Shown here piece after piece: positions 44,275 through 62,434 of a DNA stretch of 64,000 nucleotides. Positions within the stretch are counted from its first letter, which is position 1. Every line of letters begins with the position of its first letter. Source of the DNA: Nakamurella sp. (GTDB lineage: Bacteria; Actinomycetota; Actinomycetes; Mycobacteriales; Nakamurellaceae); the NCBI GenBank assembly GCA_017848755.1, contig JAFIHI010000091.1, positions 350 to 64,349 on the forward strand, written 5' to 3'. Under the pieces are notes generated by a model. The model was not told the DNA's origin, did no database searches, and saw only the letters and a program-made list of their open reading frames with translations. The position numbers and the translations under genes are program-made.

Positions 44275-44976
44275 TCAGATCTCCTGCGGCGCTCCCACGA
44301 CGTCGTAGCGCACTTCGAGCGCGCGGCCCAGGACTGGATCGGTTAGCCGACAGCGCCACGACGACGCGCCGGCAACGATGTCGCCGCCGATGGTCCCCGA
44401 CAGGATCACGGTGCCGATCGGCGGAGGCGATCCCACCCGATGCGTGAGCTCGGCGATGAGATCATCGGGTCGCAGCAACTCTGCCACCGATCCGTGCTGG
44501 ACACGCTGCCAGGCGGAACCGTCCCCGGCGAGACGTCGGCACTCTGCGGTCAGCGTGAGCTCGTCCCAGCGCTCGCGGACTTCGTCATGCATCCATACCG
44601 CACCGCTGACCACGTCGGGGTACATGATCTTGGCGTACGCGGTTGATATGGATTCGACGGTGAACTCAGAGTGGTCGGAGGCGGCCGCGACGAGCCATCC
44701 GGCGTCGGTGCGGATGAGCGCGAACTCGACCTCCCCGTAGGACGTGCTGCCGGCGACTGTCACCTTGGAAGCGGTGGTGACCGCGCCCGGCAGCATCACA
44801 TAGATCGATGGGACGCGGGTCGGCGGCGTCAGCCCCAGGTGGACCAGTTCGTCGATGTGTGCCTGGACGGTTTCGTGGGTGCGGCCGGCGTAGCCGAAGT
44901 TGTAGGCGCCGGTGACGTCACAGTCGCACGACCGCTTGGTGCCGTCTCGGTGATCGATAGTCAGCCGCATCGTCAC
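44275..44976 (-). CDS. DUF2848 family protein (FAH-like fold)
   Basis: NFGYAGRTHETVQAHIDEL..LG..PP..VPSIY, SYGEVEF, ASDHSE. Confidence 0.8.
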   Translation of the reverse strand: MTMRLTIDHRDGTKRSCDCDVTGAYNFGYAGRTHETVQAHIDELVHLGLTPPTRVPSIYVMLPGAVTTASKVTVAGSTSYGEVEFALIRTDAGWLVAAASDHSEFTVESISTAYAKIMYPDVVSGAVWMHDEVRERWDELTLTAECRRLAGDGSAWQRVQHGSVAELLRPDDLIAELTHRVGSPPPIGTVILSGTIGGDIVAGASSWRCRLTDPVLGRALEVRYDVVGAPQEI

Positions 44977-46067
44977 GCGATCGCCTCAGCTCCCGGCTCG
45001 CGCGAGAGCGCTTCGACGACAGCCGTGCCCATCTGCGCGGTGGATGCGGCGCCGCCAAGGTCGGGCGTGCGGACCGCGGCCTCGGCGAGAACCGTTTCGA
45101 TGGCCCGCTCGACGGCGTCGGCGGCATCGGCTTCGCCGAGATGCCGCAGCATCATGGCGCCCGCCTGGATCTGCGCGATGGGGTTGGCGATGCCCTGCCC
45201 GGCGATGTCCGGCGCGGACCCGTGGATCGACTCGAACATCGACGGGCCGGTGTGCTCCGGGTTGAGATTGCCGGACGCCGCCAGGCCGAGGCCGCCGACG
45301 AGCGCGGCGGCCAGGTCGCTGAGGATGTCGCCGAACAGGTTGGAGGCGACGATGACGTCCAGGCTGCCCGGCGCGGTGACCATGCGTGCGGCTAGCGCGT
45401 CGACGTGGTAGCGCCTGAGCTCGATGTCCGGGTAGCCGGCTGCGACCTCGTCGACGATTTCGTCCCAGTACGGCATCGTGTGAATGATGCCGTTGGATTT
45501 CGTTGCCGACGCGACCCGACCGGACCGGCTGCGTGCCAGCTCGAATGCGTAGCGCGCGATGCGTTCCACGCCGTGCCTGCTGAAGCGTGCGACCTGCGTG
45601 GCGTATTCGTCCGCGGCGCCCACATCGTGCCGCCCGCCCTCCGTCGAATACTCGCCCTCGGAGTTCTCCCGCACGATCACCATGTCGAGATCCGCTGCGT
45701 CGATATCCCGCAGCGGCCCGGTCACGCCGGGCAGCAGGCGGGCCGGACGAAGGTTGACGTACTGGTCGAACGCGCGACGGATCGGGATCAGCAGGCCCCA
45801 CAGCGAGACGTGGTCGGGCACGGACGGGTAGCCGACCGCGCCGAGGAGGATCGCGTCGAATGGGCGCAGCTGATCGATGCCGTCGTCGGGCATCATGGCA
45901 CCGGTCTCGGCGAAACGTGCGCAGCTCCAGTCGAAGTCGGTCCAGCGAACGGAGAATCCGAACCGGTCGGCCGCCTCGTCGAGGACGCGGATCGCCTGGT
46001 CGCACACCTCCGGCCCGATGCCGTCGCCTCCGATCGTCGCAACCGCGTAGCCGCGGGGAGCCGTCAT
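44973..46067 (-). CDS. Tartrate dehydrogenase / D-malate dehydrogenase (decarboxylating)
   Basis: GGDGIGPEV, VPDHVSLWGLLIPIRRAFDQYVNLRP, ATKSNGIIHTMPYWD, SNLFGDILSDL, MFESIHGSAPDIAG. Confidence 0.9.
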   Translation of the reverse strand: MTAPRGYAVATIGGDGIGPEVCDQAIRVLDEAADRFGFSVRWTDFDWSCARFAETGAMMPDDGIDQLRPFDAILLGAVGYPSVPDHVSLWGLLIPIRRAFDQYVNLRPARLLPGVTGPLRDIDAADLDMVIVRENSEGEYSTEGGRHDVGAADEYATQVARFSRHGVERIARYAFELARSRSGRVASATKSNGIIHTMPYWDEIVDEVAAGYPDIELRRYHVDALAARMVTAPGSLDVIVASNLFGDILSDLAAALVGGLGLAASGNLNPEHTGPSMFESIHGSAPDIAGQGIANPIAQIQAGAMMLRHLGEADAADAVERAIETVLAEAAVRTPDLGGAASTAQMGTAVVEALSREPGAEAIA

Positions 46068-46570
46068 GGCTGCTCGGCCCGCGCGAACGTGAGCGTCTCG
46101 CCCCGCACGCCGCCCATCCACAGATCCTGCGCGGCGGCCGCCATCGCATCGAGGCCGACCACCACCGTCGCGAACACGTTGCCGGGCACCCATCCCTGAT
46201 CGCCGTTGATCAGCAGATTGTTGCGCCCGTAGAACAGGGCGAGATCGACCACGGCGCTTTCGTTGGCCGCGCCCTGCCCCTCGGCGTAGCCGTAGCCGGG
46301 GTTGGCGAGGTCGTCATCCGAGAACGAGAACCAGCACAGGTCGCCCGGGATCGGCGTGATGGTGGTGTTCTCGGATCCGGGGCTTTTCGGCGCGAAAACC
46401 GGTAGCAGTGCGTAGATCTCGTTGCGCGCGTATTTTGCGTGGTACACCTGGCCCGACAGCGGCAGCGCATCCCAGACCGCCGCGGCGGTACGCGGCGCTG
46501 CGTCATCGAGGAGTCGTGCGATGCATTGCACGCCATGGCTTTCCAACGTGATCGAGATGAACCTTGCCAC
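46064..46570 (-). CDS. DUF3830 family protein
   Basis: APRTAAAVWDALP...YHAKYARNEIY, ENTTITPIPGD, DLALFYGRNNLL. Confidence 0.85.
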   Translation of the reverse strand: MARFISITLESHGVQCIARLLDDAAPRTAAAVWDALPLSGQVYHAKYARNEIYALLPVFAPKSPGSENTTITPIPGDLCWFSFSDDDLANPGYGYAEGQGAANESAVVDLALFYGRNNLLINGDQGWVPGNVFATVVVGLDAMAAAAQDLWMGGVRGETLTFARAEQP

Positions 46571-46622
46571 TTCTTCCTGCCTTTCGTCGTGCTCGCGCCT
46601 GCCACAGATATGACGCGTCCCG

Positions 46623-48035
46623 CTACCAAGCGAGCAGCGTCGGGCGGCGGCGATGCCAATCAGTGCGCTGTTCGAATGCACGTGCCACCCGCAGCACCAG
46701 CCGATCGCCGTGCCGGGGGCCGACGATCTGCAGCCCGATGGGCCGGCCGTCGGCGGTGATGCCGCACGGCACGCTGGCGGCGGGCTGCTGCGTCATGTTG
46801 AACGGGTAGGTGTACGGCGTCCAGCTGGTCCACCATTCGGAGGTGGACCCGGCGGGGGTGTCACGGCCGACCTCGAACGCCGGGATCGGCAGCGTCGGGG
46901 TGATCAGGACGTCGTATCGCTGGTGGAACGCGCCCATCGTCTGGCCGAGCGACATCCGGACGGCGACCGCGTCCAGATAGTCGCCGGCGGTGAAGGCCTT
47001 CCCGAGTTCGGCGCAACGGCGCAGCAGCGGATCGATCGCGTCGAGATCCGACTCGGCGTAGTGCTCGAGCACCTTCGCCGCCCCGGCGAACCACAACACG
47101 TGGAAGGCCTCGGTCGGGTCGCCGAACCCCGGATCCGTCTCGGTGACATCCGCGCCGGCCTCGCCGAGAACCGCGACGGCAGAACGGACCGCGCGATCGA
47201 CCTCGGCGTCGTTCGCGGCGTATCCGAGATCCGGTGAGAAGCCGATCCGCACGCCTACGACACCAGACTCGATGCCGTCGAGAAAGGAGCCGCTGGGGGT
47301 CGGCATGGCCGACCAGTCCCGAGGGTCGAATCCGACGAGCAAGTCGAGCATGGCCGCCGCATCGGTCACCGACCGCGTCATCGGGCCCGCATGGGCGAGG
47401 GTTCCGAACGGGCTCGCGGGATAGTGCGGGACCAGCCCGTAGGTGGGCTTGAGCGCGGTGGTGCCGGTGAACGCCGCGGGAATTCGCACGGAGCCGCCGC
47501 CGTCGGTGCCGACGGACCAGGTCCCCATGCCCAGGCCCACGGCCGTCGCCGACCCTCCGCTCGAGCCGCCCGAGGTGAGCCCGGCCCCCCACGGGTTCCC
47601 GGTGGCGCCGAAGCGGCGGGAATCCGTGACGCCCTTCCAGGCGAATTCCGGCGTGGTCGTCTTGCCGATGAACACGCATCCCGCCTCGCGCAGCCGGGCG
47701 ACCGACGGCGCGTCCTCGGTCCAGGGGCCTGCGGCGTCGACCAGCGCCGAGCCGCGCAGCGTCGGCCACCCCTTGGTCAGGAGGATGTCCTTGACCGGTG
47801 TGGGCACGCCGTCGAACTCGCTGCGTGGGGCGCCGCCGCGCCAGCGCTGCTCTGCGTCGCGCGCCGCTGCGAGGGCGGCGGCCCGGTCGACGAATACGAA
47901 GGCGTGCACGTCGCCGTCGTGTGCCGCAACCGCGTCGAGCGCAGCGGTGACCGCTTCGACGGGCGAGACCTCACCGCGCGCGAAGGCGTCGGAAAGCTCC
48001 GTGGCCGAGGCCAGGGAAAGATCGGTGATCGTCAT
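46623..48035 (-). CDS. Amidase (amidase-signature family)
   Basis: GVPTPVKD, GKTTTPEF, GGSSGGS, GTDGGGSVRIPA, PFNMTQQPA. Confidence 0.92.
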   Translation of the reverse strand: MTITDLSLASATELSDAFARGEVSPVEAVTAALDAVAAHDGDVHAFVFVDRAAALAAARDAEQRWRGGAPRSEFDGVPTPVKDILLTKGWPTLRGSALVDAAGPWTEDAPSVARLREAGCVFIGKTTTPEFAWKGVTDSRRFGATGNPWGAGLTSGGSSGGSATAVGLGMGTWSVGTDGGGSVRIPAAFTGTTALKPTYGLVPHYPASPFGTLAHAGPMTRSVTDAAAMLDLLVGFDPRDWSAMPTPSGSFLDGIESGVVGVRIGFSPDLGYAANDAEVDRAVRSAVAVLGEAGADVTETDPGFGDPTEAFHVLWFAGAAKVLEHYAESDLDAIDPLLRRCAELGKAFTAGDYLDAVAVRMSLGQTMGAFHQRYDVLITPTLPIPAFEVGRDTPAGSTSEWWTSWTPYTYPFNMTQQPAASVPCGITADGRPIGLQIVGPRHGDRLVLRVARAFEQRTDWHRRRPTLLAW

Positions 48036-49030
48036 AGGCGCTCCTTGACGGCCGGCGGTACGAACCCCAGCCGCTTATCGACGATGTTGGCGAGCGGCCG
48101 CCCGGCGAGCCAACGTTCAGCGTTGTCGACGAACTGCGCGGCGAGCGTGTCCCACCAGCCGGTGAAATCCGCGCACATGTGCGGGGAGATGACGATGTTC
48201 GGCTCCGACCACATCGGGTCCGACGCAGGCAGAGGCTCCGTCTGGAACACGTCGAGCGTGGCCAGGCCTAGGTGGCCCGAACGGATGGCGACGAGCAGCG
48301 CGGTCTCATCGACGATAGGGCCGCGCGCGATGTTGACCAGGTGGGCTCCAGGTTTCATCGCCGCGATCACCTCGGCGTCGATGAGGCTGCGGGTGGCGTC
48401 GGTGAGCGGTGCGGCAACGACGACGTGGTCGGCCCAGCCGACGTGCGCGACAAGGTCGCTGCTCGCAATGATCTCGGAGAAATCGGGGTCGTCGGAGCGC
48501 GCGACCCGCGCGGCGCCGCGGACCCGGGCACCTAACATCGCTAGCACTCGGCCGATCTCTCGACCGATCTCGCCGGTGCCGACGACGAGCACGTTTTGCG
48601 TGGCGAGCGTCTCGGTCTCGCGGTGCTCCCAATGGCGGCGGGACTGCATCTCCCGCGAGAGGTGCAACTGTTTGAGCTTCGCGAGGATGGACGCCAGCAC
48701 GAACTCGGCGATGGGGCGGTCGAACACGCCGCGCGCGTTCGTCACGGTGACGGGCGAGCCCGCCAGATCGTCGAACAGCAGGGTGTCGACGCCCGCGGCC
48801 GCGACGTGGATCCACTCGAGCGAAGCGGCGCGATCCCACACGTCACGCACCGCGGACGAGAAGAAGTCCCAGAGGAACAGCACCTGCGCGCCGTCGACGG
48901 CGTCGGCCAGCTCGTCCGCCGTCGCCCAGCGCACGTCCATCCGATCGGTGATCCGTGCGAGGTCCGGCCGGGACTGCCCCGGTTTGCACAGCACGGCAAG
49001 AATGGGTCGCGCGGCGGTAGCGGTGGTCAC
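48032..49030 (-). CDS. D-2-hydroxyacid dehydrogenase
   Basis: WIHVAAAGVD, TNARGVFDRPIAEF, VVGTGEIG, VNIARG, LDVFQTEPL, ISPH. Confidence 0.9.
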   Translation of the reverse strand: MTTATAARPILAVLCKPGQSRPDLARITDRMDVRWATADELADAVDGAQVLFLWDFFSSAVRDVWDRAASLEWIHVAAAGVDTLLFDDLAGSPVTVTNARGVFDRPIAEFVLASILAKLKQLHLSREMQSRRHWEHRETETLATQNVLVVGTGEIGREIGRVLAMLGARVRGAARVARSDDPDFSEIIASSDLVAHVGWADHVVVAAPLTDATRSLIDAEVIAAMKPGAHLVNIARGPIVDETALLVAIRSGHLGLATLDVFQTEPLPASDPMWSEPNIVISPHMCADFTGWWDTLAAQFVDNAERWLAGRPLANIVDKRLGFVPPAVKERL

Positions 49031-49057
49031 TCCCGGAACTCTAATCGATATCGTAGT

Positions 49058-49069
49058 ATTGTCAACAAT
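49058..49069. promoter_or_regulatory. GntR-type operator ATTGTCAACAAT
   Basis: Palindrome between divergent genes; one of four copies. Confidence 0.8.
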
Positions 49070-49115
49070 CTGCGAACCGCTCGATTCGCGCTGCTCCCTG
49101 GATGACGAGGTTCCC

Positions 49116-49877
49116 ATGACCGACGCTCCTACCGCTCCACCGTCGCCCCGCGCGACGGACAATCTGCCCGACCTCTCGTTCGCCGGGATCGGGATCATCG
49201 CCCCGTACGATTTCGCACTCGATCGTGAGCTGTGGCGCTGGGCGCCGCCGGCCGCGAACCTGCACCTCACGCGGCTGCCCTGGGCTGCGCCGGAGGTCAC
49301 GATCGACATGGTGACATCGCTCGGCGACCCCGCCGAGCTGACGGCCGCCACCCGAGAGCTGACGACCGTCGGCCCTGCCGTCCTCGTCTACGCGTGCACG
49401 TCCGGCAGCTTTGTCGGTGGCATCGACGGCGAACACGCGCTGCGTCGGGTGATGACGGCCGCGGGCGCCCCGGCGGCGACGACGACGAGCGGCTGCATCG
49501 CCGAGGCGCTGGCGCATCTCGATGCGAACGCGGTCGCGATAGCTACGCCGTACACCCGCGACATCACCGAACGACTCGAGGCGTTCCTCGCCGCCCACGG
49601 CCACACCGTCGTCGGAGTCTCGGACCTTGGCATGCAGACCGAGATCTGGACGCTCGACTATCGCACGGTGGCGGATCTGGTCCGCCGCGCCGACCAGCCG
49701 AACGCCGACGCGGTCGTCATCTCCTGCACCAATGTGCCGAGTTACCACCTCATCGCGCCGCTGGAGGAGGAACTCGGGAAGCCGATCATCAGCGCGAACC
49801 AGGCGACGATGTGGGGGGCGCTCAAGGCGGCAGGCCTGTCGATCGTCGGTCCCGGTCAACGGCTCGTCGAGGCGTAG
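49116..49877 (+). CDS. Asp/Glu racemase - maleate isomerase family protein (EutA-like)
   Basis: GIGIIAPYDFALDRELWRW, YACTSGSF, ATPY, ISCTN, SANQATMW; both catalytic Cys present. Confidence 0.88.
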   Translation: MTDAPTAPPSPRATDNLPDLSFAGIGIIAPYDFALDRELWRWAPPAANLHLTRLPWAAPEVTIDMVTSLGDPAELTAATRELTTVGPAVLVYACTSGSFVGGIDGEHALRRVMTAAGAPAATTTSGCIAEALAHLDANAVAIATPYTRDITERLEAFLAAHGHTVVGVSDLGMQTEIWTLDYRTVADLVRRADQPNADAVVISCTNVPSYHLIAPLEEELGKPIISANQATMWGALKAAGLSIVGPGQRLVEA

Positions 49878-49999: not shown

Positions 50000-50011
50000 A
50001 TTGTTGACAAT
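50000..50011. promoter_or_regulatory. GntR-type operator ATTGTTGACAAT
   Basis: Directly upstream of the ectoine hydrolase-like gene. Confidence 0.8.
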
Positions 50012-50035: not shown

Positions 50036-51226
50036 GTGATCGCAGCAACATCCGACGGGCCGGATGCCGCCGAATACGCCGACCGACTCGCCCGGGTGCG
50101 CGCCGCCATGGCCGAGCGCTCGCTGTCGGCATTGGTGGTGGCCGATCCGGCCAATCTGTACTACCTCACCGGATACAACGCGTGGTCGTTCTACACCCCG
50201 CAATGTCTCGTCGTTCCGGCGGACGGCGATATCCGGCTGTTCGCCCGAGCCATGGATGCCGACGGCGCGACGAACACGACGTGGCTGCCAGCGGACCGGA
50301 TCGACGGCTATCCCGAAGAGCTGGTTCACCGGCCCGACGCGCACCCCTACCAGTGGATCGCGCGGCGCGCGGTGGAAACCGGCGTGCTGCCGCCCGACGG
50401 CACCATTGCGGTGGAGGGCGACGCGAACTTCTTCTCGGTACGCGGCTACCAGGCGCTCACCGCAGGAGTTCCCGGTGCGAGTTTCCAGGACAGCCGCGAG
50501 CTGGTGAACTGGGTGCGCGTGGTCAAGTCCCCGTACGAGCAGCAGATGCTGCGGATCGCCGGAACCGTCACGGACGGCGCCATGTCGACCGCGCTCGCCG
50601 CGATGGAAGCGGGCCGCCGTCAATGCGACGTGGTCGCCGACATCATGCATGCGCAGGCCGCCGGCACCGCCGAGCACGGCGGCGACTACCCCGCGATCGT
50701 GCCCATGCTGCCGACCGGCAAGACCGCCGGCACGCCGCACATGACGTGGAGCGACCAACCCTTCGTCGTCGGCGAGGCGACCACGATCGAGGTCGCCGGT
50801 GTCTACCTCCGCTACCATGTGCCGCTGGCCCGCACGGTCGTGTTCGGCACACCCGAGCGGCGCCTCGCCGCTCTCGCCGACACGATCACCGAGGGCATGG
50901 CGGCCGCCCTAGCAGCCCTGGCCCCTGGCGCCACGCCGCATCAGGCGCACGTCGCGTTCACCGACGTGATCAGCCGCGAGGGGTTCACCAAGGAGTCCCG
51001 CATCGGCTATTCGATCGGCATCGGATACCCCCCCGACTGGGGCGAGCGGACCGTGAGCCTGCGCGCCCATGACGACACCGAGTTAGTCGCCGGGATGGCG
51101 TTCCACGTCATCCTCGGCATGTGGATGGACGGCTGGGGCTACGAGCTCTCCGAGCCCGTGCTCATCACCGATCAAGGCGCCGAGCGGCTCACCCATCAGG
51201 AGCAGACCCTCACCGTGAAGGCGTGA
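50036..51226 (+). CDS. doeA: Ectoine hydrolase-like M24 family protein (DoeA/EutD)
   Basis: DPANLYYLTGYNAWSFY..Q, GDYPAIVPMLPTG, SRIGYSIGIGYPPDWGERTVSLR, characteristic of DoeA. Confidence 0.82.
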   Translation: MIAATSDGPDAAEYADRLARVRAAMAERSLSALVVADPANLYYLTGYNAWSFYTPQCLVVPADGDIRLFARAMDADGATNTTWLPADRIDGYPEELVHRPDAHPYQWIARRAVETGVLPPDGTIAVEGDANFFSVRGYQALTAGVPGASFQDSRELVNWVRVVKSPYEQQMLRIAGTVTDGAMSTALAAMEAGRRQCDVVADIMHAQAAGTAEHGGDYPAIVPMLPTGKTAGTPHMTWSDQPFVVGEATTIEVAGVYLRYHVPLARTVVFGTPERRLAALADTITEGMAAALAALAPGATPHQAHVAFTDVISREGFTKESRIGYSIGIGYPPDWGERTVSLRAHDDTELVAGMAFHVILGMWMDGWGYELSEPVLITDQGAERLTHQEQTLTVKA

Positions 51227-51231
51227 TCCGC

Positions 51232-54481: not shown

Positions 54482-55121
54482 GGTGACGCTCCAAGGTTCG
54501 GATGAGCAGCGAGGACACCAGGCTGACTATCAGATACAGCAGTCCGGCGATGGTGACAGGCTCCAGGTATCGATAGGTGCTGGAGCCGATCGCCTGGACG
54601 CGGCCCATGAGTTCGAAGACGGTGATCGCGAACAGGACGGCGGAATCTTTGAACATTTGCACCAGGTAATTGCCGAGCATCGGCACCACGGCCCGCAGCG
54701 CTTGCGGAAGCACGACCCGGGTCCAGGTGAGAGCCTGCGGCATAGAAAGTGCGGTTGCGGCCTCCCACTGCCCCCGCGGCACGTCTTCGACGCCGGCCCG
54801 GTACACCTCGGCGGTGTAGGCGCTGTAGTTGATCCCGATGACGGCGATGCCGGTGACGAGCGGGCTGAACGCGATGCCGTACGCCGGCAGTGCAAAGAAC
54901 GCGAGATACGCCTGCACCAGCAGCGGCGTTCCGCGCACGAAGTGTACGTAGAAGCCGAAGATCGGCGACACGATCGGAATCGCCAGACGTCGGACGATCG
55001 CGACGACGAGGCCGAGCACCAGTGCGATTACCATTCCGGCGATGGTGATCTGGATCGTGAGCCACAGCCCGCCGAGCAACTCCGGAAGGATCGAGATGGC
55101 GAACGCGGTGTCCCAGCTCAT
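54462..55121 (-). CDS. ehuD: Ectoine/hydroxyectoine-type ABC permease
   Basis: MSWDTAFA..ILP.LL.GL, RGTPLLVQ, MLGNYLVQMFKDS. Confidence 0.78.
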   Translation of the reverse strand: MSWDTAFAISILPELLGGLWLTIQITIAGMVIALVLGLVVAIVRRLAIPIVSPIFGFYVHFVRGTPLLVQAYLAFFALPAYGIAFSPLVTGIAVIGINYSAYTAEVYRAGVEDVPRGQWEAATALSMPQALTWTRVVLPQALRAVVPMLGNYLVQMFKDSAVLFAITVFELMGRVQAIGSSTYRYLEPVTIAGLLYLIVSLVSSLLIRTLERHLALNRI

Positions 55122-55831
55122 GACACCGTCCCGGCAGCCGTGAGCGGCTTGTTCTTCGACGCGCGCAGGAACGACGCCGACGGGCGATCGATCGCGAAGC
55201 GGCGCTCCAGCCACCGGCTGAGTAGGCCGATGAGCTGGGACAGCAGGAAGTACATGACGAGGATCATCAGGTACACCGTCATCGTCTGGCCGTACGCGTT
55301 ACGGATGAACGACGCCCGGAACGTCAGATCGGTGACGCCGATGAACGAGACCAGCGAGCTGTTCTTGAGCAAATCGACCGCGACATTGCCGAACGGCGGC
55401 AACATCGCCGGGATCGACTGCGGGATGAGCACGCGCCGCATACGCAGCGACTTGCCCATGTTGAGCGCGATGCATGCCTCGTTCTGGCCGGCGGCGCGGG
55501 TGATGACCGCGCCGCGCACAATCTCCGCGGCGTAGGCGCCCTCGTTGAGGCCGACGGCCACGATCCCCGCCAGCAGCGGCGACAACTCGATCCCGACCGC
55601 GGGCAGAGCGAAGAAGAAGAAGAACAGTTGCACCACCAGCGAGGTGCCCCGGAACAGCTCGATAAATACGACCGAGATCCCGCGCACCCAGGCATGGTCG
55701 GACAGGCGGCCGATGCCAGCGATGAACGCGGTCACCAGCGCGAGCACCGTGCCGAGCACCGTCACGATGACCGTGTACAGCAACCCCCACCCGAGCTGGG
55801 GAAACGCATAGGCCCAGAACCCTTCCGGCAT
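55118..55831 (-). CDS. ehuC: Ectoine/hydroxyectoine-type ABC permease
   Basis: ELFRGTSLVVQLF, GLNEGAYAAEIVRGA, MLPPFGN..VDLLK. Confidence 0.78.
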   Translation of the reverse strand: MPEGFWAYAFPQLGWGLLYTVIVTVLGTVLALVTAFIAGIGRLSDHAWVRGISVVFIELFRGTSLVVQLFFFFFALPAVGIELSPLLAGIVAVGLNEGAYAAEIVRGAVITRAAGQNEACIALNMGKSLRMRRVLIPQSIPAMLPPFGNVAVDLLKNSSLVSFIGVTDLTFRASFIRNAYGQTMTVYLMILVMYFLLSQLIGLLSRWLERRFAIDRPSASFLRASKNKPLTAAGTVS

Positions 55832-55887: not shown

Positions 55888-56805
55888 TCAGCCCGGGTTC
55901 TTGCAGAGCTCCGCGGTCGTGACGCCCTTGACGACCGCCGGGTCGAATCCCCACTTGTCGAGGATCTGCGCGAACTCTGGCGAGTCCTTCAGCGTGGTCA
56001 GGTTCTTGTTGTACTCGTCGACGAAGGCCTTGTCGTCCTTGCGGAACGCGGCGCCCGATCCGGTCTTCGGGGCGTCGCTAACCGGCGGCGTCACCTCCAG
56101 GCCCTTCTCCGTCTCGGCGAGCGCCTTGAGTGACAGCGTCGGCAGCATGAACGCGTCGGCACGACCGGCCAGCACGGCCTCGACGCCGCTGCGGTTGTCG
56201 TTGATGCGCACGAGCTGTGAATCTGGCACCTTCGCGGTCTGCAGGATGCCCTCCTCGAATCCGCCGGGCAGGACGACGATCTTGAGGTTCTTGTTGTCCA
56301 GCACGTCCTTGACCGTGAGGATGTGCTTCGGATTGCCCTGCGGCACGCCGAACGATTCGGTGGAGACGATCACCGGCTCGGAGTAGAGCACCTGTGCGCA
56401 GCGCGACTCCTTCATGAACAGCCCCGCCGTGATGGCGTCCCAGCGGTTGGCCTGCAGGCCCGGAATCATGCCGTTGTAGGGGGTGATGATGCCCTGGATA
56501 TCGTCGATGCCCATCTTCTTGCAGACGGCGCGGCACACGTCCGGCTCGCAGCCGGTGACGGTGCCGTCGGCCTCGACCTTGGTGTACGGCGGCTCGTTGG
56601 CGATGGCGACCCGGATGTAGCCCTGCTTCTTGGCGCGAGACAGCAGGTCCGCACCGAGATCGCTGCCACCGCTGGCCGCACCGGTCGTACCCGCGACCGG
56701 CGCATTGTTCGAGCCGCATGCGGCGAGAAATGTGCCGGTCGGGATCGCCAGTGCGGCGTACCCGACACCCCGCAACATAGTCCGGCGGGTAATCTCTGGC
56801 GTCAT
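55888..56805 (-). CDS. ehuB: Ectoine/hydroxyectoine-type ABC substrate-binding lipoprotein (Tat)
   Basis: TRRTMLRG Tat motif, LAAC lipobox, IANEPPY, IPGLQANRWDAITAGLF...RCAQVLYSEP, NPKHILT. Confidence 0.8.
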   Translation of the reverse strand: MTPEITRRTMLRGVGYAALAIPTGTFLAACGSNNAPVAGTTGAASGGSDLGADLLSRAKKQGYIRVAIANEPPYTKVEADGTVTGCEPDVCRAVCKKMGIDDIQGIITPYNGMIPGLQANRWDAITAGLFMKESRCAQVLYSEPVIVSTESFGVPQGNPKHILTVKDVLDNKNLKIVVLPGGFEEGILQTAKVPDSQLVRINDNRSGVEAVLAGRADAFMLPTLSLKALAETEKGLEVTPPVSDAPKTGSGAAFRKDDKAFVDEYNKNLTTLKDSPEFAQILDKWGFDPAVVKGVTTAELCKNPG

Positions 56806-56897
56806 GCTCACTCCTATCAGGATTACAGCGCTCGACCGAGCGCGGACCGCGGCACCCTCCGCGACGTCTGGTCAGAAACCTAGTTTCGTGTTGTAGC

Positions 56898-56909
56898 ATT
56901 GTCAACAAT
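56898..56909. promoter_or_regulatory. GntR-type operator ATTGTCAACAAT
   Basis: Between the divergent ehuB and isomerase-gntR genes. Confidence 0.8.
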
Positions 56910-57008
56910 CTTCTGATTTACTGATCGCATCGTAATGACATCGTCATCTCGGATTCGGCCGTCACCACGGGTGCGGTTGCACCGACCTCGACTAGTCGGA
57001 AGGCCCCG

Positions 57009-57743
57009 ATGAACCCTGCACCCGACACCCAGGCCCCCACGGTCGGCCTGTTGTACCCCGGCTTTGGCGCGGAGGACGACTTCCCCGCGCTGGAGCAGCG
57101 ACTCGACGGCGCGATACGACTGCCGCTCGTGCACACGTCGGTGGGTGTGGACCACCACGACGTGGACGCGCTGCTCGACCTCGGCGGTCCGGACCGACTT
57201 GCTGAGGGCGCGCACACCCTGATGGAGTCGGCACCCGGTTCGGTGATGTGGGCATGTACCTCGGGCAGCTTCGTGTTCGGGTGGGACGGCGCGCGGCGTC
57301 AGGTCGAGCAGCTTGCCGTCGTCACGGGATTGCCCACTTCTTCGACGTCGCTGGCGTTCGTCGCTGCGCTGCAGCACCTCGGAATCCGCACCGTCGCCGT
57401 GGCCGCCTCCTACCCAGAGGATGTCGCAACCCACTTCGTCGGATTCCTGGGCAGCGGCGGCATCACCGTCACCACCATGACGAGTCACGGGATCGAAACG
57501 GCCGCGGGCGTCGGGAAGCTGTCCGACGCCGCGGTCGTGGACCTGGTCCGCAGCGTCGACACCACCGGCGCGGAAGCGGTTCTCGTCCCGGACACGGCCA
57601 TGCATTCGTTGCTCCTCGTCGAGGCGATGGAGCAGGCCGCCGGGCTCCCGGTACTCACCGCGAACCAGGTGACGGTGTGGCAGGGGCTGGCGATTCAGGG
57701 CGCCAGGACCGCCCTTCCCCGGCTTGGAAGATTGTTCACGTGA
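57009..57743 (+). CDS. Maleate isomerase / Asp-Glu racemase family paralogue
   Basis: VGLLYPG..AEDD, WACTSGSFVFG, AASYP; the second Cys site reads PDTA. Confidence 0.85.
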   Translation: MNPAPDTQAPTVGLLYPGFGAEDDFPALEQRLDGAIRLPLVHTSVGVDHHDVDALLDLGGPDRLAEGAHTLMESAPGSVMWACTSGSFVFGWDGARRQVEQLAVVTGLPTSSTSLAFVAALQHLGIRTVAVAASYPEDVATHFVGFLGSGGITVTTMTSHGIETAAGVGKLSDAAVVDLVRSVDTTGAEAVLVPDTAMHSLLLVEAMEQAAGLPVLTANQVTVWQGLAIQGARTALPRLGRLFT

Positions 57744-58465
57744 GCACCCCACATTTCATCGAGCCGCTGGTCCAGCGGTCGACCCCGAGCATCATCGCCG
57801 AAAAGCTCCGCCTGGCCATCGCGCACGGCGAGCTCGCCCCCGGCGACCAGTTGTTCGAGGCCGAGCTCGCCCGCGAACTGGGGGTGAGCCGCGGCCCGCT
57901 GCGCGAGGCGATCCAGCGGCTCACCCAGGAGGGGCTGCTGATTGCGATCCGTAACCGCGGGGTCTTCGTCATCGAGATGACGCCGGAGCGGATCAGGGAC
58001 ATGTACGTCGCGCGGGCTGCGATCGAGCGGGCGGCGGCCGAGCAAATTCTGCGGTCCGGTCGCGGTGACACGGCAGCGGAGGCCCTGCTGGAGGTGGTGG
58101 CGCAGATGCGCGAGGCCAACCGGCGCCACCGCATCGCGGACACCACCGAGGCCGACATGCGCTACCACCAGCTGCTCGTCGAACTGGCGCACAGCCCCCG
58201 CCTGAGCCGGATCCACTCGACGCTGCTCACCGAGACCCGGATCTGCATCACGGCACTGGAGGACAGTTACCGGTTCGGCGACGACCGCGTCGACGAGCAC
58301 CGGGCGATCGCCGAGGCGCTCCGCTCGGACAGCGGCTCGCCGAAACCGGACGGGCAGCGTCGCACCCTCGTGGACCGATTGCTGGTGGACCACATGGATG
58401 ACGCGCTCCGGCGGCTCTCCGCTTCGGAGGCTGAGGCGCCGGACGCCGATGGCGTCACGGTGTGA
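57740..58465 (+). CDS. GntR family regulator (FadR/FCD type)
   Basis: LAPGDQLFEAELARELGVSRGPLREAIQRL..EGLL...NRGVFV, FCD-like C-terminus; GTGA overlap. Confidence 0.92.
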   Translation: MSTPHFIEPLVQRSTPSIIAEKLRLAIAHGELAPGDQLFEAELARELGVSRGPLREAIQRLTQEGLLIAIRNRGVFVIEMTPERIRDMYVARAAIERAAAEQILRSGRGDTAAEALLEVVAQMREANRRHRIADTTEADMRYHQLLVELAHSPRLSRIHSTLLTETRICITALEDSYRFGDDRVDEHRAIAEALRSDSGSPKPDGQRRTLVDRLLVDHMDDALRRLSASEAEAPDADGVTV

Positions 58466-58517
58466 CGCCGCCAGCATCAGGCACAACCCGTGCGGCAGTC
58501 GCACGCCGGCGTGCGGC

Positions 58518-60014
58518 TCACATCTTGACGCCGATGTACTTCGTCTCGAGGAACTCGTCGATGCCGGTCGGCCCCCCCTCGCGCCCCAGGCCCGACGCCT
58601 TGACGCCGCCGAACGGGGCGGCAGGGTTCGATACGACGCCCTCGTTGAGCCCTACCATCCCGCACTCGAGCGCCTCGGCGACGCGCAGCGCCCTGCGCAG
58701 GTCGTTCGTGTAGACGTAGGCGACCAGGCCGTACGGCGTGTCGTTCGCGGCGTCGATCACCGCCTGCTCGTCGGTGAAGGCCGTCAGCGGCGCGACGGGC
58801 CCGAAGATCTCCTCGCGGGCCATGCGCACGCTCTCTGGAACACCGGTGAGCACCGTGGGCGGGTAGAAGAAACCGTCGCCGTCGGGCGCCTGCCCGCCGG
58901 TGAGGATGCGCGCACCGCCTGCCACGGCGTCGGCGACGAGGCCGGAGACCTTCTGCTGCGCCGCGGCGTCGATTAGCGGACCGACCTGCACACCTTCTTC
59001 CACGCCGCGGCCGATTCGCATCGTTGACATCGCGGCCGCGAGCTTGGCGCCGAACGCGTCGATGACCGAGGTGTGGACGTAGATGCGGTTCGCTGCCGTG
59101 CAGGCCTCGCCCATGTTCCGCATCTTCGCGGCGAGTGCCCCGGCGACCGCCTCGTCGAGGTCAGCGTCCTCGAAGACGATGAACGGCGCGTTCCCGCCGA
59201 GTTCCATGGAGGTGCGCATGACCTGTTCGGCGCACTGCTCGAGGAGGACCTTGCCGACGCTGGTCGAGCCGGTGAACGACAGCTTCCGCGCATCGCCCGA
59301 CCTGATGAGCGGCTCCATCACAGCGTTCGCGCGCCGCGTCGTCACGATGTTCACGACGCCGGCCGGGATGCCCGCCTCGGCGAGGATACCGCCCAGGGCC
59401 AGCATCGACAGCGGCGTCTGCGCAGCAGGTTTGATGACGCTGGTGCAGCCGGCCGCGATCGCCGGGCCGAGCTTGCGGGTGCCCATCGCCATGGGGAAGT
59501 TCCACGGGGTGATGAGCAGGCAGGGGCCGACCGGTTGCCGTGCTACCAGGAAGCGGGCGCCGCCGGTCGGCGCGATCTGATAGCCGCCGTCGATTCGGGT
59601 GGCCTCTTCAGCGAAGTGGCGGAAGAACTCGGCCGCGTAGGCGATCTCGCCGCGCGAATCGGCCAACGGCTTGCCCATCTCCAAGGTCATCAACAGGGCG
59701 AGCTCATCGGTGCGCTCGTGCAGCAGTTGAAAGGCGCGCATCAGCATGTCGGACCGCTCCCGCGGCGTGGTCGCCGCGAAGGCGCGCTGCGCCTGCACCG
59801 CCGCATCCAGCGCGCGCCGCCCGTCGGCCGGTGACGCATCCGCGACGGCGCACAGCGCCGTGCCCGTGGAGGGATCGAGCACCTCGAATGTGCCGGAGCC
59901 CTCGGCGTCGACCCACTCACCGTCGATGAAGAGTTGCTTGGCGACCCGGTCTATGACCGCGCGCTCGTCGATTCCGCCGTGTTCCGGTGCCGTCGTCGCC
60001 GTTGCTGTCGTCAT
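58518..60014 (-). CDS. gabD: NAD(P)-dependent succinate-semialdehyde dehydrogenase family (GabD/DoeC-like)
   Basis: ITPWNFP, FTGSTSVG, MELGGNAPF, GEACTAANR, EEIFGP, SGLGREGG. Confidence 0.88.
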   Translation of the reverse strand: MTTATATTAPEHGGIDERAVIDRVAKQLFIDGEWVDAEGSGTFEVLDPSTGTALCAVADASPADGRRALDAAVQAQRAFAATTPRERSDMLMRAFQLLHERTDELALLMTLEMGKPLADSRGEIAYAAEFFRHFAEEATRIDGGYQIAPTGGARFLVARQPVGPCLLITPWNFPMAMGTRKLGPAIAAGCTSVIKPAAQTPLSMLALGGILAEAGIPAGVVNIVTTRRANAVMEPLIRSGDARKLSFTGSTSVGKVLLEQCAEQVMRTSMELGGNAPFIVFEDADLDEAVAGALAAKMRNMGEACTAANRIYVHTSVIDAFGAKLAAAMSTMRIGRGVEEGVQVGPLIDAAAQQKVSGLVADAVAGGARILTGGQAPDGDGFFYPPTVLTGVPESVRMAREEIFGPVAPLTAFTDEQAVIDAANDTPYGLVAYVYTNDLRRALRVAEALECGMVGLNEGVVSNPAAPFGGVKASGLGREGGPTGIDEFLETKYIGVKM

Positions 60015-60137
60015 CGCATTCCTTTCGTCCGGCGCGGCTTCTGCCGCTCGCCGTCATCGCTTGTCTGGGTCGGCTGCCCTCTCGCGGCCGCTGCCTGCGA
60101 GGGTCATTGACACCGCGGCCATTCTGTCCATACTCTG

Positions 60138-60149
60138 ATTGTCGACAAT
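60138..60149. promoter_or_regulatory. GntR-type operator ATTGTCGACAAT
   Basis: Perfect palindrome between the divergent gabD and aminotransferase genes. Confidence 0.8.
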
Positions 60150-60174
60150 CTACCAGATAGGTTCGAGGAGAGAA

Positions 60175-61449
60175 ATGGCCGAGCTGTCGCCCATCCTGAA
60201 GCAGGCAACCCCGGTCGTCGCGGCGCGCGGCGAGGGCGTCTACCTCTACGACGAAGACGGCAGACGGTACCTCGACTTCACCGCGGGGATCGGCGTCACG
60301 GGCACCGGGCACTGCCATCCGCGAATCGTGAAAGCAGCGCAGGAGCAGATCGCCAAGCTCATCCACGGGCAGTACACGACAGTGATGCACCGACCGCTGC
60401 TCACCCTGGTCGAACGCATGGGTGAGGTGCTGCCGGACGGACTCGACCAGATGTTCTTCGCCAACTCCGGTTCGGAGGCGGTCGAGGCCGCTATGCGCCT
60501 AGCACGCCAGGCGACTCGGCGCCCCAACATCGTCGTCTTCCACGGCGGGTTCCATGGCCGCACGGTTGCCACGGCGTCACTCACCACCTCCGGTACCAAG
60601 TACCGCTCCGGATTCGCGCCGCTCATGGCGGGGGTGCATGTCGCACCGTTCCCGAACCCGTCGCACTACGGCTGGGGCGTTGAGGAGGTCACCGACTTCG
60701 CGCTGAAGGAGTTGGACTTCCTGCTGCAGACCATCTCGGCCCCGGAGGAGACCGCCGCCTTCCTGGTCGAGCCGGTGCTCGGGGAAGGAGGCTACGTGCC
60801 GGGCAACTCCAGATTCTTCGCCGGGCTGCGGGAGCGGGCCGACCGCTACGGCATCGTGCTGATCGCCGACGAGGTGCAGACCGGCTGGGGACGGACCGGG
60901 AAGTTCTGGGGCAGCGAGCATTTCGACCTGAAGGCCGATGTGCTGATCACGGCGAAGGGTCTTGCGTCCGGATTCCCGCTGTCCGGAATCGCCGCCTCCG
61001 CGGAGTTGATGTCCAAGGCTTGGCCCGGATCGCAGGGCGGCACGTACGGCGCGAACGCCGTCGCGTGCGCCGCCGCGATCGCCACGCTGGACGTCATGCG
61101 GGACGAGGACCTCATCGCAAACTCGGCCGACCGGGGCGTCGAATTGAAGGAAGCGCTGGAGAGGGTGGCGGTCCGCTACCCCGAGATCACCGACGTGCGC
61201 GGGCTCGGCCTGATGCTTGCCAACGAGTTCCGCGACAAGGACGGCAACCCGGATGGCGCGACCGCCGTAGCGGTGCGCGCCGAGGCCGTCGAGCGCGGTC
61301 TGATCCTGCTCGGCTGCGGCTCGTGGGGCGAAGCGGTCCGCTTCATCCCGCCGCTGGTCGTCGACAGCCAGCAGATCCAGGAGGCTGCCCGCATCTGGGG
61401 CGATGCGGTGGAAGCCGTCGTTTCCCGGGATTCGGCATCGGGGGCCTGA
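60175..61449 (+). CDS. Class III PLP aminotransferase (GabT/DoeD-like)
   Basis: GAGGAG RBS; YLDFTAGIG..GHCHP, NSGSEAVE, FHGRT, EPVLGEGG, IADEVQTGWGRTG, TAKGLASG. Confidence 0.9.
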   Translation: MAELSPILKQATPVVAARGEGVYLYDEDGRRYLDFTAGIGVTGTGHCHPRIVKAAQEQIAKLIHGQYTTVMHRPLLTLVERMGEVLPDGLDQMFFANSGSEAVEAAMRLARQATRRPNIVVFHGGFHGRTVATASLTTSGTKYRSGFAPLMAGVHVAPFPNPSHYGWGVEEVTDFALKELDFLLQTISAPEETAAFLVEPVLGEGGYVPGNSRFFAGLRERADRYGIVLIADEVQTGWGRTGKFWGSEHFDLKADVLITAKGLASGFPLSGIAASAELMSKAWPGSQGGTYGANAVACAAAIATLDVMRDEDLIANSADRGVELKEALERVAVRYPEITDVRGLGLMLANEFRDKDGNPDGATAVAVRAEAVERGLILLGCGSWGEAVRFIPPLVVDSQQIQEAARIWGDAVEAVVSRDSASGA

Positions 61450-61453
61450 CGGC

Positions 61454-62434
61454 ATGCGGCCGGCAACGCCGCCGGGGCCCGGCGGTTTCGTCGGCCAGCC
61501 GAACTCGGAGCAGGTACCGCGGTTCGCGGGGCTGACCACCTATGCGCGGCTGCCGCGCCGCGACCAGGTGGACAGGTGCGACGTCGGTGTGATCGGTGTG
61601 CCGTTCGACAGCGGCGTGTCGTTCCGTCCCGGCGCGCGGTTCGGACCCTCGGCGGTACGGGAGGCCTCCCGGCTGCTGCAGGGTTTCCACCAGTTCCAGG
61701 ACGTCACCCCGTTCGGTGTCCAGCAGGTCGCCGATCTCGGCGATATCACGGCCAATCCGTTCAATATCGGCGAAGCCATCGACGCCATCGAACGTGGCTC
61801 GCGCGCGCACGTCGAGGCAGGCACGCGGCTCATCGCAATCGGCGGTGATCACACGATCGCGCTGCCCCTGCTGCGCTCGGTCGTGGCACGACACGGGCCG
61901 GTGGCACTGTTGCATTTCGACGCGCACCTGGACACCTGGGACACGTATTTCGGCACACCTTACACGCACGGCACACCATTTCTGCGAGCGCACGAGGAGG
62001 GCCTTCTGCTGCGAGACCACCTGTGCCATATCGGCATCCGCGCACCGCTGCACGACGCCAGCGACCTCGACCGGGACGAGTCGATCGGCTTCGGCATCAT
62101 CTCGGCGTTCGACGTCGCCGACCGCGGCGTGCACACGGTGATCGAGCAGCTGCGCGAGCGGGTCGGCGACGCGCCGCTGTACGTCTCCATCGACATCGAC
62201 GTGCTCGACCCAGCGCACGCGCCCGGTACCGGTACGCCGGAGGTTGGCGGCCTCGCCAGTCGAGAACTCATCGAGATCCTGCGCGGCATCACCGGTCTCA
62301 ACGTCCTGGGCGGCGACGTCGTCGAAGTGGCTCCCGCCTACGACTGGGCGGGCATCACCGCGATCGCCGCCGCCCAGCTCGTCTATGAGATGATCACAAT
62401 CTTCGCGAAGCGGGCCGTGCGCCCCGGCGCCTGA
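61454..62434 (+). CDS. speB: Ureohydrolase (agmatinase/guanidinobutyrase)
   Basis: PRFAG..T.ARLP, GGDHTI, FDAHLDTWD, SIDIDVLDPAHAPGTGTPE. Exact substrate not resolvable. Confidence 0.8.
   Translation: MRPATPPGPGGFVGQPNSEQVPRFAGLTTYARLPRRDQVDRCDVGVIGVPFDSGVSFRPGARFGPSAVREASRLLQGFHQFQDVTPFGVQQVADLGDITANPFNIGEAIDAIERGSRAHVEAGTRLIAIGGDHTIALPLLRSVVARHGPVALLHFDAHLDTWDTYFGTPYTHGTPFLRAHEEGLLLRDHLCHIGIRAPLHDASDLDRDESIGFGIISAFDVADRGVHTVIEQLRERVGDAPLYVSIDIDVLDPAHAPGTGTPEVGGLASRELIEILRGITGLNVLGGDVVEVAPAYDWAGITAIAAAQLVYEMITIFAKRAVRPGA

Follow-up and report, generated by a model that had tools for sequence, protein, structure and literature searches.

Introduction

The closest described relatives of the locus studied here are the ectoine utilization clusters of Proteobacteria, namely ehuABCD-eutABCDE-asnC-ssd-atf with enuR in Sinorhizobium meliloti (pSymB), Rhizobium etli (p42f) and Ruegeria pomeroyi, and doeABXCD in Halomonas elongata. 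The canonical route runs from 2,4-diaminobutyrate (DABA) through aspartate-semialdehyde to aspartate. Soil Actinomycetota are major producers of the stress solute ectoine and of hydroxyectoine. Before 2026, consumption of ectoine had been demonstrated and mapped only in Proteobacteria, and the clusters of Gram-positive bacteria and archaea are still provisional (PMC5924519, PMC13188858). Here we describe an island of 18 genes in seven transcription units (about 18 kb, positions 44275-62434) in a stretch of 64,000 nucleotides from Nakamurella sp. (assembly GCA_017848755.1, contig JAFIHI010000091.1), which we refer to throughout as the window. We consider it probable that the island is an ectoine-type catabolic system; the fuller proposal, that it was acquired horizontally, is inducible by its substrate under the control of a GntR/FCD repressor, and works by the mechanism set out below, is put forward tentatively, with a confidence that falls slightly short of even.

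Gene content and organization

The window has a G+C content of approximately 68%; genes were chosen on the G+C content of third codon positions, and the choices were verified with Pfam and NCBIfam. Every gene class named in the initial annotation was recovered in this way, for all 18 genes at 44275-62434:

44275..44976, minus strand: DUF2848, with the fold of fumarylacetoacetate hydrolase (FAH); last gene of the leftward operon, lineage add-on (PF11010, 153 bits)
44973..46067, minus strand: tartrate/D-malate dehydrogenase of the Iso_dh family (TDH), lineage add-on (TIGR02089, 504 bits against a cut-off of 470.4)
46064..46570, minus strand: DUF3830, cyclophilin-like, conserved core (PF12903, 211 bits)
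46623..48035, minus strand: amidase of the amidase-signature (AS) family, conserved core (PF01425; NF004815 (PRK06169), 700 bits against 506)
48032..49030, minus strand: D-isomer-specific 2-hydroxyacid dehydrogenase (2HADH), first gene of the leftward operon (PF02826, PF00389; start refined)
49116..49877, plus strand: Rac1, Asp/Glu-racemase/Amdase family, EutA/maleate-isomerase type (PF17645, 96 bits)
50036..51226, plus strand: DoeA-like M24/creatinase-type amidinohydrolase, putative ectoine ring hydrolase (PF01321, PF00557)
51232..52437, plus strand: AT1, class I alpha-aminotransferase of the LysN/kynurenine aminotransferase II type, with no helix-turn-helix (HTH) domain (PF00155)
52439..53638, plus strand: M20 deacylase of the ArgE/DapE family, proposed N-acetyl-DABA deacetylase (TIGR01910, 233 bits against 217.6)
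53660..54415, minus strand: EhuA, ABC ATPase (TIGR03005, 346.4 bits against 345.4, borderline; start refined)
54462..55121, minus strand: EhuD, permease (TIGR03003, 255 bits against 205.2)
55118..55831, minus strand: EhuC, permease (TIGR03004, 235.5 bits against 197)
55888..56811, minus strand: EhuB, lipoprotein solute-binding protein (TIGR02995, 264 bits against 190.9)
57009..57743, plus strand: Rac2, EutA/Amdase-like (TIGR02990, 92 bits against 318; PF17645)
57740..58465, plus strand: GntR/FCD-family regulator, predicted palindrome binder; its start at 57740 overlaps the Rac2 stop (PF00392, PF07729)
58518..60014, minus strand: SSADH-like aldehyde dehydrogenase, DoeC/Ssd analogue (PF00171, 535 bits; TIGR01780, 568 bits against 646)
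60175..61449, plus strand: AT3, class III GabT/PuuE-like omega-aminotransferase (PF00202, 396 bits)
61454..62434, plus strand: arginase-family ureohydrolase, guanidinopropionase/guanidinobutyrase-like, lineage add-on (PF00491)

The first leftward operon runs in the order 2HADH, amidase, DUF3830, TDH, DUF2848, with the last three junctions overlapping or almost touching: the start of DUF2848 overlaps the TDH stop, and the TDH start at ATG 46067 yields a protein of 364 aa, to be compared with the 360 aa gene of a near-identical strain (contig L115) that carries the same operon, TDH-DUF2848 included. Rac1 is a rightward unit by itself, followed by a rightward operon of the DoeA-like hydrolase, AT1 and the M20 deacylase, by the leftward ehuB-C-D-A operon, by a rightward unit of Rac2 and the GntR/FCD gene, by the SSADH-like gene alone in leftward orientation, and by a rightward unit of AT3 and the ureohydrolase. 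The neighboring genes, for an ECF-type sigma factor and a membrane protein on the upstream side and for a cupredoxin downstream, are unrelated to the island; therefore the span of 44275-62434 assigned to it in the initial annotation is the right one. A plus-strand open frame of 880 codons (47238-49877), antisense to the amidase and 2HADH genes, is spurious except for its final 253 codons (49116-49877), which constitute Rac1; gene callers can easily be misled by this arrangement.

The genome to which the window belongs is 3.85 Mb in size and 96.5% complete. Since the DoeA-like gene occurs in 0 of 24 congeneric and 0 of 16 same-order genomes, the island is accessory in this organism, and vertical inheritance of the cluster was ruled out on the same grounds. 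An ectoine synthase, EctC, is also encoded in the genome (contig C131:5541-5897, minus strand; PF06339, 133 bits), so that the organism is probably both a producer and a consumer of ectoine; how a futile cycle is avoided then becomes a question.

Comparison with described systems

With the proteobacterial clusters the island shares an Ehu-type importer in which the EhuB pocket is conserved, a hydrolase of the M24/creatinase type that has DoeA as its nearest characterized relative, EutA-like proteins, a class III aminotransferase, an SSADH-like dehydrogenase, and what appears to be a substrate-inducible catabolic logic. Unlike them, it is devoid of DoeB/EutE, EutB, EutC, EnuR and AsnC, and has a GntR/FCD regulator with a palindrome of its own; its hydrolase lies outside the DoeA clade (41-43% identity to five canonical DoeA proteins, themselves 62-93% identical to one another), and AT3 is GabT-like (31% identity to S. 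meliloti Atf). A class I aminotransferase, an M20 deacylase, a D-2-hydroxyacid dehydrogenase, an AS amidase, DUF3830 and a second racemase-like protein are additional to the proteobacterial complement.

A nearer comparison is provided by the putative Gram-positive and archaeal clusters described in PMC13188858 and by five near-canonical loci that we recognized in actinobacteria of other classes (L109-L112 and L114, in genomes G057, G190, G162, G176 and G307), which consist of ehuBCDA, doeA and homologues of eutB and eutC. As in the island, there is no EutE/DoeB in the putative clusters or in L109-L112, and an M20-type amidohydrolase is found next to the hydrolase; Gram-positive hosts and the association with Ehu, BCCT or MFS transporters are further points of resemblance. 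The doeA products of the five loci are 56-61% identical to R. etli DoeA and score 458-651 bits on TIGR02993. The L109-L112 type differs from the island in keeping eutB and eutC and in having a DoeA at or near the equivalog cut-off (573-651 bits), whereas the island carries AT1, 2HADH, amidase, DUF3830 and Rac1/Rac2.

In the archaeon Haloferax lucentense, plasmid pSVX82-1 (L100:9983-21128) encodes M24, GdhB, an FAD/Fe-S dehydrogenase, a D-2-hydroxyacid dehydrogenase, an amidohydrolase, a Thr/Ser dehydratase, a class III aminotransferase and a BCCT transporter. This set and the island have in common a DoeA-like hydrolase, an alpha-deaminating enzyme, a D-2-hydroxyacid dehydrogenase, an amidohydrolase, a class III aminotransferase and an osmolyte-type transporter; by analogy, the Haloferax cluster could possibly be an archaeal version of the same route. 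It differs in having a Glu/Leu/Phe/Val-type dehydrogenase instead of AT1 and an EutB-like dehydratase, and in being without AS amidase, DUF3830, racemase-like proteins and GntR operator.

Two further resemblances concern parts of the island. The ureohydrolase, AT3 and the SSADH-like enzyme recall the GbuA/GpuA and GabT-GabD proteins of Pseudomonas aeruginosa, with 264 bits to GpuA (3nip) and 261 bits to GbuA (3nio) for the ureohydrolase, and 305-312 bits to E. coli GabT and PuuE for AT3; unlike the P. aeruginosa system, however, these genes lie within an ectoine-type regulon, and AT3 and SSADH are conserved with the DoeA-like core without the ureohydrolase. TDH belongs with the tartrate dehydrogenase/decarboxylase of Pseudomonas putida and with DmlA (Iso_dh family), and passes the TIGR02089 cut-off; it differs from them in being the fourth gene of a 2HADH-amidase-DUF3830 operon and in its coupling to the FAH-fold DUF2848.

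Conservation among related loci

The DoeA-like protein has 476 relatives in GTDB species genomes, of which the best 80 were examined by recording the genes within 10 kb of the DoeA-like gene. These 80 loci are almost all from Actinomycetota (Kribbella, Nonomuraea, Ornithinimicrobium, Nakamurella, Georgenia and others). Linkage to the DoeA-like gene is closest for AT1 and 2HADH (74 of 80 loci each), followed by Rac1 (67), M20 (63) and the amidase (62), adjoining which DUF3830 is conserved; Rac2 also has 67 matches, about 45 of them at an identity of at least 45%, while the weaker ones are probably derived from Rac1. GntR is found in 49 loci, SSADH in 37, AT3 in 33, and a FAD/Fe-S D-2-hydroxyacid dehydrogenase similar to YdiJ (approximately 1000 aa), the same that is present in Haloferax, in 38-40. 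The core thus comprises DUF3830-amidase-2HADH, Rac1-DoeA-like-AT1-M20, Rac2-GntR, SSADH and the GabT-like aminotransferase, and recurs together with the operator in 60-74 of the 80 loci. It represents a well-defined type of cluster with its own regulator and operator, common to many Actinomycetota and distinct from the textbook pathway: three of the five canonical eut genes are missing, and six conserved genes have no role in the known pathway.

TDH and DUF2848 were considered as members of the ancestral core and ruled out: they occur in 0 of the 80 loci, accompany the core solely in this island and in one near-identical strain, and are absent from 23 of 24 congeners, the match in the remaining congener being only 36% identical. 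The ureohydrolase likewise accompanies the core only in this island and in 1 of the 80 loci, that of the closest relative, where its position is different.

Operators and regulator

The palindrome ATTGTYRACAAT has exactly four perfect copies in the window, at 49058, 50000, 56898 and 60138, versus 0 occurrences in 100 dinucleotide-preserving shuffles. All four copies are located in promoter regions:

49058..49069: operator 1, ATTGTCAACAAT, between the divergent 2HADH and Rac1
50000..50011: operator 2, ATTGTTGACAAT, upstream of the DoeA-like operon
56898..56909: operator 3, ATTGTCAACAAT, between the divergent ehuB and Rac2
60138..60149: operator 4, ATTGTCGACAAT, between the divergent SSADH and AT3

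The same palindrome is present at the 2HADH/Rac1 junction in 74 of the 80 related loci (and upstream of 2HADH in 61 of 65 homologues), upstream of Rac2 in 40, at the SSADH/AT3 junction in 32-33, and upstream of the DoeA-like gene in 26; of the relatives that carry ehuB, all nine have it upstream of that gene. The occurrence of four exact palindromes against none in the shuffled sequences, together with that of the same gene set in dozens of genomes, indicates that the clustering is not random. Being co-transcribed within the regulon, the GntR/FCD protein is the obvious candidate binder, and on the basis of this arrangement we presume that it recognizes all four palindromes and that the seven units form one regulon. 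There is no regulator of the EnuR type (MocR/GabR, in which an HTH domain is fused to an aminotransferase) or of the AsnC type in the island. AT1 was evaluated as a possible EnuR-like regulator and discarded, as it has no HTH domain and its nearest relatives are the catalytic LysN and KAT-II enzymes.

The importer

The four Ehu subunits all reach the respective NCBIfam equivalog cut-offs. EhuB aligns to the sequence of the S. meliloti EhuB crystal structure (2q88) with 219 bits, and has LAAC as its lipobox, an element expected of a Gram-positive binding protein. The seven pocket residues listed in PMC6915088, mapped onto the 2q88 alignment, are E, Y, Y, F, R, F, E in the window and E, F, Y, F, R, T, E in S. 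meliloti: six of seven are identical or replaced by a similar residue, with the aromatic box complete and the Arg/Glu pair preserved, and the sole real change (T to F) falls at a site that is variable (T, V, I or A) among accepted EhuB proteins. By its sequence, EhuABCD of the island appears to be an ectoine-type importer with an intact pocket. Of the 80 related loci, 26 have a ProP-like MFS transporter, which, like the BCCT type, is a typical osmolyte carrier.

The hydrolase and the deacylase

The M24 protein has the Creatinase_N plus M24 pita-bread architecture. Its best solved match is H. elongata DoeA (6twk; 345 bits, E = 5e-102), the next one being a prolidase with 85 bits, and it retains 122 of the 193 positions that are invariant in canonical DoeA. 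On the model for the second type of DoeA (NF038259) it reaches 173.8 bits against a cut-off of 575; a DoeA of this second type was not found above cut-off in any of 400 sampled Actinomycetota, and the type is absent from our tree.

In the slot beside the DoeA-like gene there is no DoeB/EutE; two genes downstream lies the ArgE/DapE-type M20, whose nearest relatives in the PDB are DapE and ArgE. That EutB, EutC and EutE/DoeB are missing from the cluster, as noted in the initial annotation, was borne out, since no cluster ORF matches any of them. The annotation had also named the presence of eutBC/eutE elsewhere in the genome as a finding that would speak against its reading: in the whole genome the DoeB/EutE model (TIGR02994) has zero matches, and the best scores for EutB (TIGR02991, 285 bits against a cut-off of 413) and EutC (TIGR02992, 125 bits against 472) come from sub-threshold paralogues outside the cluster, on other contigs. 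Canonical ectoine genes elsewhere in the genome are thus ruled out by the whole-genome profile searches.

N-alpha-acetyl-DABA is the lower homologue of N-acetylornithine, the substrate of ArgE. The five near-canonical loci also lack DoeB, and an ArgE-type M20 follows directly after doeA in each (TIGR01892, 350-390 bits against 297.7). Furthermore, a 2026 survey reports M20 amidohydrolases in place of eutE in Gram-positive clusters, which it terms provisional (PMC13188858). Both observations favor the earlier suggestion that the M20 enzyme stands in for DoeB, a substitution that we regard as plausible; the support comes from analogy and not from orthology, because the window M20, although a member of the same ArgE/DapE family, is only 30-33% identical to those of the near-canonical clusters.

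Enzymes of the lower pathway

AT1 scores 288 bits against archaeal multiple-substrate aminotransferases and LysN, and the SSADH-like enzyme is 44% identical to S. meliloti Ssd. The nearest solved relatives of the amidase are GatA, aryl acylamidase and NylA; DUF3830 matches an uncharacterized PDB entry, 3kop, with 266 bits. DUF2848 is modeled by AlphaFold2 with a pLDDT of 94.5, and Foldseek aligns the model to KdaD (2q18) and FAH (1qcn) with probability 1.0 and TM values of 0.60-0.66; the E-x-E...D metal triad (E82, E84, D101) is invariant in 34 homologues. The model thus identifies DUF2848 as a member of the FAH superfamily, the enzymes of which act on 2-oxo acids. The literature library searched contained no paper on DUF3830 or DUF2848.

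D-malate and tartrate are known substrates of TDH-family enzymes, as established for the P. putida enzyme. The YdiJ-like gene of this genome sits on another contig, while TDH is translationally coupled to the core operon, and we read TDH as a non-orthologous replacement, in this lineage, of the YdiJ-like dehydrogenase of the relatives.

Both racemase-like proteins are 26-29% identical to R. etli EutA. In alignment with the latter, Rac1 keeps both catalytic Cys motifs, and its best solved match is maleate isomerase (2xec, 77 bits); Rac2 retains the first catalytic Cys and has Asp in place of the second.

The ureohydrolase, whose scores of 261-264 bits to GbuA and GpuA compare with 117 bits to arginases, appears by sequence to be most like a guanidinobutyrase or guanidinopropionase, not an agmatinase or arginase. 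It follows AT3 in the same operon and completes with the SSADH-like gene a trio similar to gbuA-gabT-gabD; we read it as a lineage-specific side entry for guanidino acids. Homologues 69-71% identical to it occur in two clusters that have no DoeA-like gene (L116:7178-19627 and L117:7123-20705), which were reached through their DUF2848 homologues. In these a GbuA/GpuA-like ureohydrolase, a GntR/FCD regulator and 2HADH are divergent from DUF2848, an Ehu-like ABC transporter, a GabT-like aminotransferase, a YdiJ-like dehydrogenase and an aldehyde dehydrogenase. They probably encode a pathway for guanidino compounds that shares the D-2-hydroxy-acid lower steps. The binding proteins of both have Asn at the pocket aromatic position F80, which is kept in EhuB of the window type, and this difference argues that the window transporter is of the ectoine type.

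Proposed pathway

We infer the substrate, ectoine and probably 5-hydroxyectoine, and the order of the steps as follows. EhuBCDA would take up the solute (step 1), and the DoeA-like M24 amidinohydrolase would open its tetrahydropyrimidine ring to give N-acetyl-2,4-diaminobutyrate (step 2), with Rac1, which is fused to M24 in some relatives, presumably working on the M24 substrate or product. The ArgE/DapE-type M20 would then strip the N-alpha-acetyl group, taking the role of DoeB (step 3), while the amidase with DUF3830 may deacetylate the N-gamma isomer or a later acetamido intermediate. The proposal departs from the canonical route at step 4, in which AT1 would remove the alpha-amino group to leave 4-amino(or acetamido)-2-oxobutanoate; the 2-oxo acid would be reduced to a D-2-hydroxy acid by the D-2-hydroxyacid dehydrogenase (step 5), and the GabT-like AT3 and the SSADH-like dehydrogenase would turn the omega-amine into a carboxylate, yielding D-malate from ectoine and tartrate from hydroxyectoine (step 6). 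These would be consumed here by TDH with the FAH-fold DUF2848, and in the relatives by the YdiJ-like dehydrogenase (step 7). The guanidinobutyrase-like ureohydrolase could feed omega-amino acids to the same aminotransferase/dehydrogenase pair.

The conservation of AT1, D-2HADH, amidase and DUF3830, often with the YdiJ-like enzyme, alongside the DoeA-like gene suggests a lower pathway of 2-oxo and D-2-hydroxy acids that could serve ectoine itself; the formation of tartrate from hydroxyectoine would be a compatible special case of it. The window, the Haloferax plasmid and the clusters without DoeA all have a 2HADH, an omega-aminotransferase and an enzyme oxidizing D-2-hydroxy acids, and the window and L116 also have the aldehyde dehydrogenase. 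The simplest chemistry in which each of these enzymes would find a place starts with alpha-deamination to a 2-oxo acid and its reduction to the D-2-hydroxy acid, continues with omega-transamination and aldehyde oxidation to a D-2-hydroxy-dicarboxylate, and ends with the oxidation of the latter; it would lead from DABA to D-malate and from 3-hydroxy-DABA to a tartrate. The specific exit through D-malate is to be taken as doubtful. Equally speculative, and in our judgment rather unlikely, is the wider notion that Actinomycetota have a third ectoine route that bypasses aspartate-semialdehyde, with a related form in haloarchaea, in which, once the ring has been opened and the acetyl group cleaved off, the alpha-amino group is the first to go, the 2-oxo acid is reduced to D-4-amino-2-hydroxybutyrate, and the carbon leaves as D-malate, or as tartrate in the case of hydroxyectoine; if true, this would provide the first functions for DUF3830, DUF2848 and the two EutA-like proteins.

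Should the island indeed degrade ectoines, soil Actinomycetota would be consumers as well as producers of these solutes, the functions of DoeB and EutBC would have non-orthologous replacements, and two domains of unknown function would acquire a metabolic context. The conserved operator and the availability of cultured hosts (Kribbella, Nonomuraea, Georgenia, Ornithinimicrobium) make these predictions directly testable.

Alternative explanations

The initial annotation took the locus for a cluster of ectoine-type uptake and catabolism whose enzyme set is non-canonical, and this view is supported by the Ehu cut-offs, by the EhuB pocket, by DoeA being the nearest characterized relative of the hydrolase, and by the missing DoeB, EutB and EutC. 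Several observations weigh against it, or against the mechanism that we propose. The M24 protein reaches 388.8 bits on TIGR02993, below the equivalog cut-off of 613; the canonical DoeA clade of a maximum-likelihood tree (support 100/99) excludes it, and paralogues from other contexts (Shinella, Haloferax, S. medicae) branch between the two; and at 20 of the sites where canonical DoeA is invariant the actinobacterial clade has a different, fixed residue. The label DoeA therefore goes too far for it, and its presumed action on ectoines is the most uncertain part of the proposal. The Ehu genes stand alongside the core in only about 10 of the 80 loci. The L116 and L117 clusters contain homologues of the ureohydrolase, DUF2848 and Ehu components of the window at 51-71% identity, so that a guanidino compound may be the substrate of part of the island. 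The step order, the roles of the amidase/DUF3830, Rac1, Rac2 and DUF2848, and D-malate as end product rest on chemical inference only, and M20, AT3 and SSADH would equally be used if degradation followed the canonical route from DABA to aspartate, or an acetylated one leading from N-acetyl-DABA through N-acetyl-aspartate to aspartate.

Some of these points lead to the alternative that the substrate is not ectoine, but some other zwitterion with a delocalized cation (a cyclic amidine or guanidine, or a guanidino acid), the M24 enzyme being a paralogue of DoeA and the transporter Ehu by homology only. Besides the position of the M24 protein, relatives of which NCBI names just 'M24 family metallopeptidase', this explanation has in its favor that the EutA-like, AT3 and SSADH matches are all under their cut-offs, that a gene similar to guanidinobutyrase/guanidinopropionase is in the regulon, and that the homologues of the ureohydrolase, DUF2848 and ABC components form clusters without DoeA. 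It is opposed by the EhuB pocket, which retains the aromatic box and the charged residues of proven ectoine binders, whereas the exchange of F80 for Asn suggests that the binding proteins of those other clusters bind something else; moreover, DoeA is by far the closest characterized relative of the M24 protein, the associated ProP-like and BCCT transporters are osmolyte carriers, and the ureohydrolase is absent from 79 of the 80 loci. On this evidence a substrate other than ectoine seems unlikely.

A second alternative, proposed in the initial annotation, accepts ectoine as substrate and has it degraded to aspartate by canonical chemistry, with the DoeA-like hydrolase, M20 as DoeB, the class III aminotransferase as DoeD and the SSADH-like enzyme as DoeC, whereas hydroxyectoine would retain its hydroxyl and pass through hydroxy-DABA, 3-hydroxyaspartate and oxaloglycolate (by the class I aminotransferase) to tartrate/glycerate (by 2HADH and TDH). 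The enzymes needed are all present and co-regulated; the genome has neither EutB nor EutC, which are presumed to remove the hydroxyl; and TDH, which passes its equivalog cut-off, is coupled to an FAH-fold enzyme with the potential to act on 2-oxo acids. As an organizing idea, however, the tartrate route is not supported: AT1 and 2HADH are near universal in the 80 loci, none of which has TDH or DUF2848, and the conserved enzymes cannot depend on an enzyme that is not there. In addition, AT3 resembles GabT more than Atf, no role is left for the amidase, DUF3830, Rac1 and Rac2, and the near-canonical actinobacterial clusters with the usual handling of the hydroxyl keep eutB and eutC. We regard this scheme, hydroxyectoine branch included, as improbable.

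It is much harder to see the island as a mosaic of pathways that lie side by side with no common substrate, for instance one for gamma-aminobutyrate (GABA)/guanidinobutyrate, an amino-acid ABC importer and a D-malate/tartrate module. The similarity of AT3, ureohydrolase and SSADH to the gbuA-gabT-gabD module and the recent addition of TDH, DUF2848 and the ureohydrolase agree with such a picture, but the same exact operator serves every transcription unit, and operator and gene linkage are conserved across dozens of genera, which makes it very improbable.

Least credible, and with no specific support, is the earlier suggestion of a maleamate/maleate/D-malate route for another N-heterocycle, with the amidase as maleamate amidase, Rac1 as maleate isomerase and TDH as D-malate dehydrogenase: an amidase is present, Rac1 has maleate isomerase as its best solved match with both catalytic Cys kept, and TDH-family enzymes are known to oxidize D-malate, but maleate isomerase yields fumarate and not D-malate, there are no maleate hydratase and no ring-hydroxylating or ring-cleaving enzymes in the island, the amidase is of the AS family and not of the NicF (isochorismatase) type, the core is conserved without TDH, and Rac1 is linked to the amidine step by its fusion, in some genomes, with the DoeA-like hydrolase.

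Other observations

Several proteins in other genomes are fusions of domains found in the island. Proteins of about 660 aa combine the DoeA-like M24 and Amdase domains (P0049, P0090), and DUF2848 is fused in some genomes to Amdase (390 aa) or to a CN-hydrolase (345 aa) (P0152, P0161); these four are Rosetta-stone links from unknown proteins to the amidine and 2-oxo-acid steps.

The DoeA family, as seen in the sequences compared here, contains several uncharacterized branches. Plasmids of Shinella zoogloeoides (L101:6694-11152) and Sinorhizobium medicae (L096:8058-16120) carry DoeA paralogues with 42-46% identity to DoeA in non-canonical contexts, one consisting of M20, an EnuR-like regulator, EutA and M24, and the other of a class III aminotransferase, CMD and M24, followed past a gap by AsnC, a second class III aminotransferase and an aldehyde dehydrogenase.

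Finally, in Kribbella (L081:1-3819 and related loci) the core adjoins a urea-carboxylase-type set, composed of an allophanate-hydrolase-like amidase, KipI/KipA-like AHS1/AHS2 proteins and an APC permease (TIGR03428, 692 bits), which is probably an unrelated neighbor.

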